A DNA stretch of 64,000 nucleotides from Escherichia phage SholemSchwarzbard: the sequence record PP925840.1. The stretch is one strand, 5' to 3'. The translations under genes and the position numbers were made by a program. Positions 2,404 to 4,275 of this stretch are shown in pieces. The notes below the pieces were generated by a model that searched no databases, was not told the DNA's origin, and saw only the letters and a program-made list of their open reading frames with translations. The stretch's first letter is position 1, and every line of letters starts with the position of its first letter.

Positions 2404-2428
2404 TTCAATATCCTCATTTGCCCAATTA

Positions 2429-2458
2429 ATTATACCACATCCTTGTGGTAAAGTAAAC
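2429..2458 (-). promoter_or_regulatory. T4-type early promoter (GTTTAC-N18-TATAAT on minus strand)
   Basis: plus strand attata 2429-2434 and gtaaac 2453-2458, spacer 18; about 20 nt upstream of rIIA.1 start. Confidence 0.55.
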
Positions 2459-4275
2459 TACTGGCTCATCCATTCTTTACGAAGGTCAGCATTATCTCCC
2501 ATGAGCATTTCAAAAAGCTCTTTCCAATTCTCAGGAAGTTTAACAACATCATATACTGGGTTTTGAATCATCTCACGATATTCAGATTTTTCCAAAGAGC
2601 CAAGTCCCTTAATATAACGGATGCTATGTTTAGGTAGAGCATCTTTAGCACTCTCATATTCAGCGACTGTATAAAACCATTCTTGTTTTTTACCGACCTG
2701 AGCGATGATTACAGGAGTTTTGACGAAGCGAATTCTTCCTTGTTCAAACAGTTCTGGCCAATTACTAAAAAATCCGAGCAGAGAAGGATAAATGCTTCCT
2801 AAACCATCATGGTCAGCATCGGTCATAATAGCAATATTATGATAATTCAAGTTTTCAGCTTTTTCACCAAGAACTAATCCAGTGATTGCGCAAATATCAA
2901 ATAGTTCTTTGTTTTTAAGCATATCAGCATATGACATACCCCAACTGTTGAGAACTTTACCGCGCAATGGATAACCACCATGAAGTTCTTTATCACGAAC
3001 ATCAATAAGATATCCGATAGCAGAATCACCCTCAGTCAAGAAAAGAGTAGTATCAGCATCTTTACCGCAAAGATTCGCTTTGATATGTTTATGAACCTTT
3101 GCCTTAGAAGCCTTTTTAGCTGCTTTAGTTTCAGCTGCTTTTTCTGCTGCCAATTTACGAGCTAGTGCAGCTTCAATAATTGGCATTAAAATTGCTTCAT
3201 TATTTAAAATAGCGCGTGAAATCTTTTTAGCGTCAAGTTGAATATGACTACGAATTTCGCCAAATGGAGAAGTCAAACGCTCTTTAGTTTGAGAATCAAA
3301 TCGCATGTTTTTCATATCACGAACAAACATAACGATAGTCAAACATTCTTTGACACGTGCTTTAGTTACATCAATTTTGAACTTACGTTTGATTTGTGGA
3401 ATAAGGTCTTCACAAATATCATCCATAACACAGTCAATGTGATGGCCACCATTCTTAGTGTGAATGTTATTCACGTAAGTTAATTGACGAAATCCATCCG
3501 GCGAACGACCAACCGCAATAGAACAATTTTCTTGTTCTTGAACAATAGCATGTTCATCATACTGTCGTGCATATTTCTTAAAATTGCCCTGAACCTTTTT
3601 ACCATTAAAGGTAAATTGAATATCAGGATAAACAACAGCAAGTGTCTGGAGACGATCTAGCGTAATGTCAAGATAAACTTGGGACAGCTCATTAGTTTCA
3701 AATGACATAAAATCAGGAATGAAAGTAACACGGGTTCCTTTCCATTTTCCAGGAATATCTTCCCATGATTTATTTTCCATGCCGTTTGAACAACGAACTA
3801 CAATATTATTTTGACCATCGCCAGTTTCACCAACAAACATCACAGAAAAAATGTTTGTCAAACTAGAACCAACGCCATTCATACCACCGGTGACACGTTC
3901 TTTATCATCACCAAAGTTACCACCCGCTTTTGGAATAGTCCAAGCAGCAACTGGACCAGGAATTTCTTCACCGGTAGGTGTTTTAACCATCGCTTGTGGA
4001 ATACCGCGACCGTTATCTTCAACTGTTACCTGATTATTTTTAATGGTAACATTAATTTTATTTGCGAATTTAAACTTAGTACGAATACCTTCATCTACTG
4101 AGTTATCGATAATTTCATCAATAAGCTTAACAAGACCAGGTACATACTGAACACTTTCCCATTTACCAAACAGAAAGCGCTCATGCATTTCATTAGCTGA
4201 AGAGCCAATGTACATGCCGCTACGCTTTTTGATATGTTCAATATCGCTCAGAATTTTAATTTCATTCTTAATCAT
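2458..4275 (-). CDS. 39: DNA topoisomerase II large subunit, uninterrupted fusion equivalent to T4 gp39 plus gp60
   Basis: 605-606 aa continuous ORF; GHKL ATPase motifs (EDNGRGIP, GGMNGVGSS) then TOPRIM-like DxD region (IMTDADHDG); track start is GTG at 4278, ATG at 4275 gives MIKNEIKILSD. Confidence 0.9.
   Translation of the reverse strand: MIKNEIKILSDIEHIKKRSGMYIGSSANEMHERFLFGKWESVQYVPGLVKLIDEIIDNSVDEGIRTKFKFANKINVTIKNNQVTVEDNGRGIPQAMVKTPTGEEIPGPVAAWTIPKAGGNFGDDKERVTGGMNGVGSSLTNIFSVMFVGETGDGQNNIVVRCSNGMENKSWEDIPGKWKGTRVTFIPDFMSFETNELSQVYLDITLDRLQTLAVVYPDIQFTFNGKKVQGNFKKYARQYDEHAIVQEQENCSIAVGRSPDGFRQLTYVNNIHTKNGGHHIDCVMDDICEDLIPQIKRKFKIDVTKARVKECLTIVMFVRDMKNMRFDSQTKERLTSPFGEIRSHIQLDAKKISRAILNNEAILMPIIEAALARKLAAEKAAETKAAKKASKAKVHKHIKANLCGKDADTTLFLTEGDSAIGYLIDVRDKELHGGYPLRGKVLNSWGMSYADMLKNKELFDICAITGLVLGEKAENLNYHNIAIMTDADHDGLGSIYPSLLGFFSNWPELFEQGRIRFVKTPVIIAQVGKKQEWFYTVAEYESAKDALPKHSIRYIKGLGSLEKSEYREMIQNPVYDVVKLPENWKELFEMLMGDNADLRKEWMSQ

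Follow-up and report, generated by a model that had tools for sequence, protein, structure and literature searches.

The early promoters of bacteriophage T4 are unusually information-rich (PMC2988021), and the mechanism of their shut-off is stated as not understood (PMC2988021; PMC3014915). T4-type recombination can make do with short homology (PMC2839356), and near-identical promoter/stem-loop cassettes, the PeSLs, have been described as homologous linkers for modular shuffling (PMC2839356; PMC4122927). Here, we analyse a repeated early promoter in a T4 relative of the genus Tequatrovirus, whose first 64 kb show the gene order of T4; this whole 64-kb stretch is referred to as the window. The two copies are, very probably, T4-type sigma-70 early promoters that descend as paralogs from one exchangeable, PeSL-like module and are kept by purifying selection, and the observation as such is an instance of an already known and documented property of the early promoters of T4-like phages.

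A first-pass annotation of this DNA had claimed an exact duplication of 33 bp at two loci. A repeat finder and direct reading of the 64-kb window confirmed the duplication and extended it by one base: the exact repeat is 34 nt long, its copies have the same orientation (2429-2462 and 48022-48055; Table 1), and beyond it the sequence is unrelated at either end of both copies. The window has exactly two copies of the 33-mer, 2429-2461 and 48022-48054, both on the plus strand, and no match to it, with up to three mismatches, was found in 100 dinucleotide-preserving shuffles. The copies are 45.6 kb apart, with essential genes in the intervening DNA.

Table 1. Repeat copies, promoter elements and neighbouring genes, in coordinates of the window.
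Feature	Position	Strand	Remarks
Repeat, copy 1	2429..2462	-	34 nt, exact; predicted early promoter of rIIA.1, abuts the end of gene 39
Repeat, copy 2	48022..48055	-	34 nt, exact; predicted early promoter of the nrdC.4 homolog, abuts the end of the nrdC.5 homolog
-35 element GTTTAC, copy 1	2453..2458	-	shares its G with the gene 39 TAG stop (2458-2460), as the last base of the stop
-35 element GTTTAC, copy 2	48046..48051	-	overlaps the stop codon TAG (48051-48053) of the nrdC.5 homolog
-10 hexamer TATAAT, copy 1	2429..2434	-	TGTGG directly before it gives a TG extended -10
-10 hexamer TATAAT, copy 2	48022..48027	-	TGTGG directly before it
Palindrome, copy 1	2433..2450	-	from the spacer into the first two -10 bases; 7-bp hairpin, -8.2 kcal/mol, z -1.8
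Palindrome, copy 2	48026..48043	-	terminator-like in a simple scan, tail TAATGTTCTT
rIIA.1	2200..2403	-	67 aa, Pfam T4_RIIA1; putatively driven by copy 1; 97% aa identity to T4 rIIA.1
Gene 39	2458..4278	-	unsplit topoisomerase II large subunit, 606 aa; stop overlaps copy 1
nrdC.4 homolog	46992..47993	-	333 aa from the GAGGAG-preceded ATG; putatively driven by copy 2; 78% aa identity to T4 nrdC.4
nrdC.5 homolog	48051..49043	-	330 aa, DUF7235; stop overlaps copy 2

Read on the minus strand, the repeat is A-G-TAG-TTTAC-TTTACCACAAGGATGTGG-TATAAT, and both sites have the layout GTTTAC-N18-TATAAT, with an 18-nt spacer that ends in TGTGG. A sigma-70 scan scored both sites at 10 of 12 against the sigma-70 hexamers, with a 17-nt spacer and the TG present. 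The properties of a T4-type early promoter (Pe) are there at both sites: the -35 and -10 hexamers at a distance of 17-18 nt, the TGn of an extended -10, and a position on the early-gene strand directly 5' of an early gene with a Shine-Dalgarno sequence. The leaders, 3' of each copy, are unrelated and about 20-30 nt long, with GAGGA(G) followed by the ATG; in rIIA.1, the GAGGA Shine-Dalgarno sequence lies 7 nt 5' of the ATG. The two promoters also appear among the candidates of an iterated weight matrix (PWM) that we built for early promoters after assembling the T4 genome; the matrix picked out 39 sites in T4 and 22 in the window, every one of them on the minus strand, with no plus-strand candidate. 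Taken together, these elements support the earlier claim that the repeat holds a complete early promoter, and in two Tequatrovirus records the depositors have marked a "promoter" here; from sequence and annotation, both copies are probably active as early promoters. One point against our explanation is their PWM scores, 30-32 as opposed to 50-58 for the best T4-type early promoters. Neither promoter has the A/T-rich, UP-like upstream consensus (aaaaattttttcacaaaact-type), with few matches in the upstream 20 nt, because coding sequence abuts the -35.

The promoter assignment bears on the annotation of the neighbouring genes as well. A program-made list of open reading frames begins the nrdC.4 homolog at 48023, within the promoter; the Shine-Dalgarno-preceded ATG at 47993 is the plausible start, rather than the upstream ATG inside the promoter, and the gain for annotation is thus two located early promoters and a corrected start. 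The first-pass label of a "paralog family" for the nrdC.3-nrdC.6 reading frames found hardly any support: paralogy of nrdC.3 to nrdC.6 was rejected, with a best pairwise BLASTP E value of 0.02 and no Pfam domain in common.

One account of the repeat would be chance on top of a shared consensus, with two strong promoters happening to coincide. About 19 of the 34 positions are indeed consensus positions of T4 early promoters, but some 11 central spacer positions are identical despite carrying almost no information: across the 39 T4 candidates, spacer positions +8 to +18 hold 0.02-0.34 bit. The shared segment is not, therefore, part of a longer consensus that is ubiquitous among early promoters. 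The longest in-register exact run between two T4 promoters has a median of 7 nt, and the 34 nt seen here is the longest among the 231 pairs that can be formed of the window's 22 candidates; low central-spacer information and short typical runs both bear out the statement in the first-pass annotation that the identity exceeds what the consensus requires. At least nine of ten central spacer bases are common to 4 of the 741 T4 promoter pairs, against an expectation of about 0.1 pairs. These pair statistics, the shuffles without a match and the recurrence of the same allele in the databases, in hundreds of genomes and several genera, refute a chance coincidence, to which we give practically no weight. 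Twin promoters as such are common among T4 early promoters, and this pair is not unusual: in T4, similar or longer runs are found in pairs of 58 nt (55355/146846), 39 nt (123064/136307) and 31 nt (27051/70667), and the other large repeat families of the window (D1-D3, D12) are early-promoter cassettes with their leaders.

The repeat pair is ancestral to the genus, as T4 itself has it. Site 1 of T4 is identical, at 2429-2461, and site 2, between nrdC.5 and nrdC.4 at 50944-50976, differs by two mismatches (31/33); a third, shifted relative is found at T4 167057 (GTTTAC-ATACCACAAGGACCGTGG-TACTAT), and the motif is present in only these 3 of the 39 T4 candidates. In our phage collection, 479 records carry the 33-mer at an identity of at least 99%, mostly in two places per record, and within Tequatrovirus, both promoter positions are fixed. 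Hundreds of T4-like phages match the region near 2.4 kb at 97-99% identity. The coding flanks of site 2 are only about 85-89% identical to any database phage, and the nrdC.4 and nrdC.5 alleles of the window reach 88-89% at most. From the stop codon through the promoter and the leader to the first codons, however, site 2 is nearly invariant; the promoter and leader stay nearly the same while the coding flanks diverge, which argues for purifying selection on the regulatory region. A mosaic breakpoint at site 2 was considered and rejected: both flanking genes are about equally divergent from all database phages, so the promoter is not a visible breakpoint. The sites were also considered as the replication origins oriA and oriC and rejected, oriA being near genes 56/soc and oriC near rI.-1.

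The two copies are identical over 34 nt in this phage because of a polymorphic A/G base in the spacer of the nrdC.4 site and one base that matches by chance. The spacer base of site 2 is A in RB51, AR1 and the window and G in T4, T2, T6, RB18 and Sf25; at site 1, the G allele was never seen. The presence of the site-1 base at site 2 of the window, where T4, T2, T6, RB18 and Sf25 differ, is what one would expect if site 1 had recently converted site 2 in the lineage of this phage, and short homology is enough for recombination of the T4 type (PMC2839356). The alleles differ by a single spacer base, however, and a point mutation explains the pattern equally well; the A allele is shared with RB51 and AR1, whose nrdC.5 ends differ, and the other base that extends the identity sits in a divergent codon, the last one of the upstream gene. 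Nor is there any sign of a two-way homogenisation, as G is never found at site 1, and we regard a recent conversion as unlikely.

Further evidence for a module comes from outside the genus. The same spacer, CCACAAGGATGTGGTA, recurs in IMG/VR scans and annotated genomes, again behind GTTTAC but with -10 hexamers that differ. Its locations there are the motB-cef junction of Jiaodavirus (Mineola), the junction of alt with the alt.-3 homolog in Dhakavirus (including PSD9), that of gene 41 with sp (spackle) in Winklervirus and, in other T4-like contigs, places after gene 43 and before the trna.4 and imm homologs. These other genera have two or three copies per genome, and the T4 early promoters at the very same positions have different spacers; in these comparisons, the position of the promoter is conserved and the spacer allele moves. 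The proteins flanking or downstream of the spacer in the other genera are 41-47% identical to their T4 homologs, and with downstream proteins that far diverged, a neutral persistence of an exact 14-17-mer is implausible. Common descent alone explains the exact conservation across genera poorly; it takes selection on the sequence of the spacer as such, or else a recent transfer of the module. The same allele also reaches an unrelated 52-kb Rosemountvirus, in which a 29/31 copy, GTATAC-TTTACCACAAGGAAGTGG-TATAAT, has an exonuclease gene on one side and a helicase gene on the other; together with the spread across genera, this hints at spacer selection or at horizontal transfer of promoter-sized pieces. 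Among the matches listed, those of our loose IMG/VR pattern scans fell mostly on unrelated contigs, and one recurrent type is conserved, coding-like DNA and probably not a promoter. An origin of the 33-mer in the host was rejected: no E. coli chromosome has a match or a similar site, and only two matches were found, on 53-kb "plasmid" records.

The part of the repeat that possibly goes beyond textbook knowledge is its palindromic spacer allele. The internal palindrome noticed in the first-pass annotation is present and larger than was described there, a 7-4-7 arrangement of 18 nt with the arms TACCACA and TGTGGTA around AGGA. The right arm equals the promoter consensus, and recognition by the polymerase keeps it fixed; that the left arm is conserved too, and only the loop varies, fits a structural role, if weakly. 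Such a role could be that of a terminator nested in the promoter, with the repeat as a compact PeSL: read-through RNA from gene 39 or nrdC.5 would fold, 8 nt past the stop, into a 7-bp hairpin that causes a pause or termination or makes the 3' end more stable, and TACCACA would be conserved only for its pairing with the polymerase-constrained TGTGGTA. The hairpin of -8.2 kcal/mol is retained in all longer folds, and the G allele at site 2 of T4 still pairs, as G-U. The loop varies in sequence and length (AAGGAT, AAGGAA, AAGGAC, AAGGACC) while TACCAC and GTGGTA are kept, although the searches that yielded these variants had fixed parts of the motif, and the invariance of the arms is partly an effect of the search. 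At most loci, 0-8 nt separate the end of the upstream reading frame from the -35, too few for a separate terminator; a normal A/T-rich upstream region is found, on the other hand, at the T4 copy at 167057. A simple terminator scan was passed by site 2, and one depositor annotates a "terminator" at site 1, but site 1 failed the scan, the tails are A/U-mixed, and the 7-bp stem contains only 3 G-C pairs. Folding significance is modest, with z from -1.3 to -2.0 and 12 of 200 shuffles folding as well, and compensatory changes are neither possible nor seen. At the gathering score, the curated covariance models of Rfam had no match anywhere in the window. All in all, we consider a nested terminator possible but doubtful.

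Alternatively, the 18-bp palindrome could be an operator, bound by a dimeric phage or host protein that would regulate a small subclass of early promoters, for example in their shut-off. It offers perfect 7-bp half-sites between the -35 and the -10, the classical position of a repressor, and its exact sequence is kept across genera and in an unrelated enterobacterial phage. The layout of the dyad may resemble that of lambda OL1 in PL (TACCAC-N5-GTGATA). Several observations speak against an operator: within T4, the motif is confined to the 3 candidates named above, the genes that it serves differ by genus and form no coherent regulon, one half of the dyad is no more than the promoter consensus TGTGGTA, and the E. 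coli chromosomes lack a similar site. Moreover, the centre between the hexamer arms is 6 or 7 nt long, which a rigid dimer would not tolerate. We find an operator quite improbable, and less likely than a weak terminator or insulator just behind the stop of the upstream gene. Were it nevertheless true, the palindrome would offer a way into the shut-off of T4 early promoters that the literature states as not understood (PMC2988021; PMC3014915). The wider proposition that the dyad TACCACA-N4-TGTGGTA is a cis-element, be it nested terminator/insulator or operator, that defines a small, mobile subclass of early promoters from the genera of Tevenvirinae to Rosemountvirus, is in our judgement quite unlikely.

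Under our preferred explanation, an exchangeable promoter module, host RNA polymerase would, as soon as infection begins, bind GTTTAC as the -35, TGTGG as the TRTGn/extended -10 and TATAAT as the -10. The predicted starts lie about 7 nt beyond the -10, near 2422 and 48015, and the transcripts would have a short leader with a free Shine-Dalgarno sequence; the literature on rIIA.1/nrdC.4 and on T4 transcription-start maps provided nothing usable. One module with the distinctive spacer allele TTTACCACAAGGATGTGG would have been placed at the two promoter positions by duplication or by ectopic recombination between early-promoter cassettes, as published for PeSL cassettes, and purifying selection would have kept it thereafter. 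What our data show is the anatomy and conservation of the repeat, its excess over the consensus and the reappearance of the allele at further promoter positions and in further genera; we infer promoter activity, the recombination origin and any role of the palindrome. Among 50,697 phage records, none covered at least 80% of a hybrid of the gene 39 end, the promoter and the nrdC.4 leader, or of the reciprocal hybrid of the nrdC.5 end, the promoter and the rIIA.1 leader. Since recombinant junctions of the two loci are missing from all of about 500 Tequatrovirus records, recombination at this particular pair is a historical inference only. With essential genes in the interval, an excision between the copies would be lethal.

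How, then, does the locus compare with the described systems? Like the T4 Pe (Hinton 2010, PMC2988021), both promoters combine a GTTTAC-type -35, the TG of an extended -10 and a TATAAT-type -10 in early-gene orientation, and both sites exist in T4 itself. They are unlike it in that the A/T-rich, UP-like upstream region is replaced by a stop codon overlapping the -35, and in the palindromic spacer, rare among the T4 candidates. The hairpins of T4 e, soc, 49 and I-TevI (PMC3014915) likewise overlap a promoter, and their whole structure forms only in read-through transcripts; those hairpins, however, sequester the ribosome-binding site and involve late promoters, whereas the palindrome seen here does not pair with the Shine-Dalgarno sequence. 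At site 2, folding has a separate helix of the -10 and leader pair with it.

A third described system is that of the PeSLs (Arbiol et al. 2010, PMC2839356; Comeau et al. 2014, PMC4122927). Their stem-loop is a GC-rich terminator 5' of the -35, while ours sits within the spacer and extends into the -10, and a terminator stem-loop just 5' of the promoter is missing. Recombination between PeSL copies produces mini-circles; our copies are far apart, flank essential genes and show no junction. PeSL cassettes sit at insertions, deletions or gene exchanges between related phages; here, the same allele is found at different promoter positions across genera, and both positions are fixed within Tequatrovirus. 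What the two have in common is a strong, sigma-70-like early promoter repeated in near-identical cassettes with a stem-loop (two exact copies in the window and three related ones in T4), located between unrelated genes and, in related phages, at different junctions, for which a function as linkers in homologous recombination has been proposed. The repeat is a clean example of T4-like phages reusing near-identical early-promoter modules at unrelated gene junctions, and it supports the published view of such cassettes as exchangeable linkers in genome evolution.

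A near-copy of the promoter with its spacer dyad, matching at 29 of 31 positions, is found in Salmonella phage yarpen, an unrelated 52-kb Rosemountvirus, where it is flanked by a Cas4-domain exonuclease gene on one side and a DEAD-box helicase gene on the other; the same yarpen 31-mer is also present on two 53-kb E. coli records labelled as plasmids. Two short IMG/VR contigs (L300 and L227) carry the motif GTTTAC-ATT-TACCAC-GATTT/GTTTT-GTGGTATAAT, in which the arms of the dyad are unchanged and the loop is different. The distance from the -10 element to the ATG is just 8 nt in both, and the mRNAs of these environmental phages may be leaderless.

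In the window, gene 39 is a single ORF of 606 aa and differs from its T4 counterpart in lacking the split-off gene 60, the 50-nt translational bypass and the mobA insertion. The nrdC.4 and nrdC.5 homologs, the latter a full-length DUF7235 protein, are hypervariable early genes: among about 500 Tequatrovirus records, none exceeds 88-89% DNA identity to them, compared with 98-99% for the rIIA/39 region. Pairwise BLASTP gave barely any support for paralogy among nrdC.3 to nrdC.6.

Further families of early-promoter cassettes are repeated in the window, with units that include the leader, the Shine-Dalgarno sequence and the first codons; the two members of one pair share 96% identity across 55 nt, and another pair is an exact repeat of 27 nt. 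Elsewhere, a 54-nt repeat (85% identity) lies at the beginnings of two adjacent minus-strand genes, taking in the start codon and initial codons of each; going by the T4 map, we take these to encode, probably, internal proteins, and an N-terminal targeting sequence would then be common to both. Finally, the window holds repeated copies of a GC-rich hairpin with T's after it, (A)GGGCC-GAAG-GCCC(T), which looks like a recurrent intrinsic-terminator cassette.

Coordinates of the features discussed (in the window unless stated)
Feature	Coordinates
Promoter near-copy, phage yarpen (L183)	1501-1531
Gene 39	2458-4278
nrdC.4/nrdC.5 region	46992-49043
Early-promoter cassette repeats	24953-25046, 50921-51014, 52360-52453, 55116-55186, 55928-55998
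Exact 27-nt repeat in cassettes	15149-15175, 55979-56005
54-nt gene-start repeat	62760-62813, 63094-63147
GC-rich hairpin, identical copies	30069-30088, 35604-35623
Similar GC-rich hairpins	4329, 27901, 39243
Strongly folding early promoters, T4 genome (examples)	8189, 20583, 53914, 57961, 62768
Window homologs of such promoters	7828-7857, 19282-19311, 50966-50995, 55149-55178, 60158-60187

Hairpins also recur across the early promoters of T4, 16 of 39 promoter windows folding with z < -2 relative to shuffles, against 8% of control windows. At these promoters, the left arm falls within the spacer. The right arm is 3' of the -10 element, where it often spans the next gene's Shine-Dalgarno sequence, an arrangement in which the ribosome-binding site would be occluded in read-through transcripts only. 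The window promoter at 55149 has two A-to-G changes relative to T4, and the pairing is kept as G-U. The design is like that of the published promoter-embedded hairpins of T4 e, soc, 49 and I-TevI (PMC3014915), the difference being that the promoters here are early ones.
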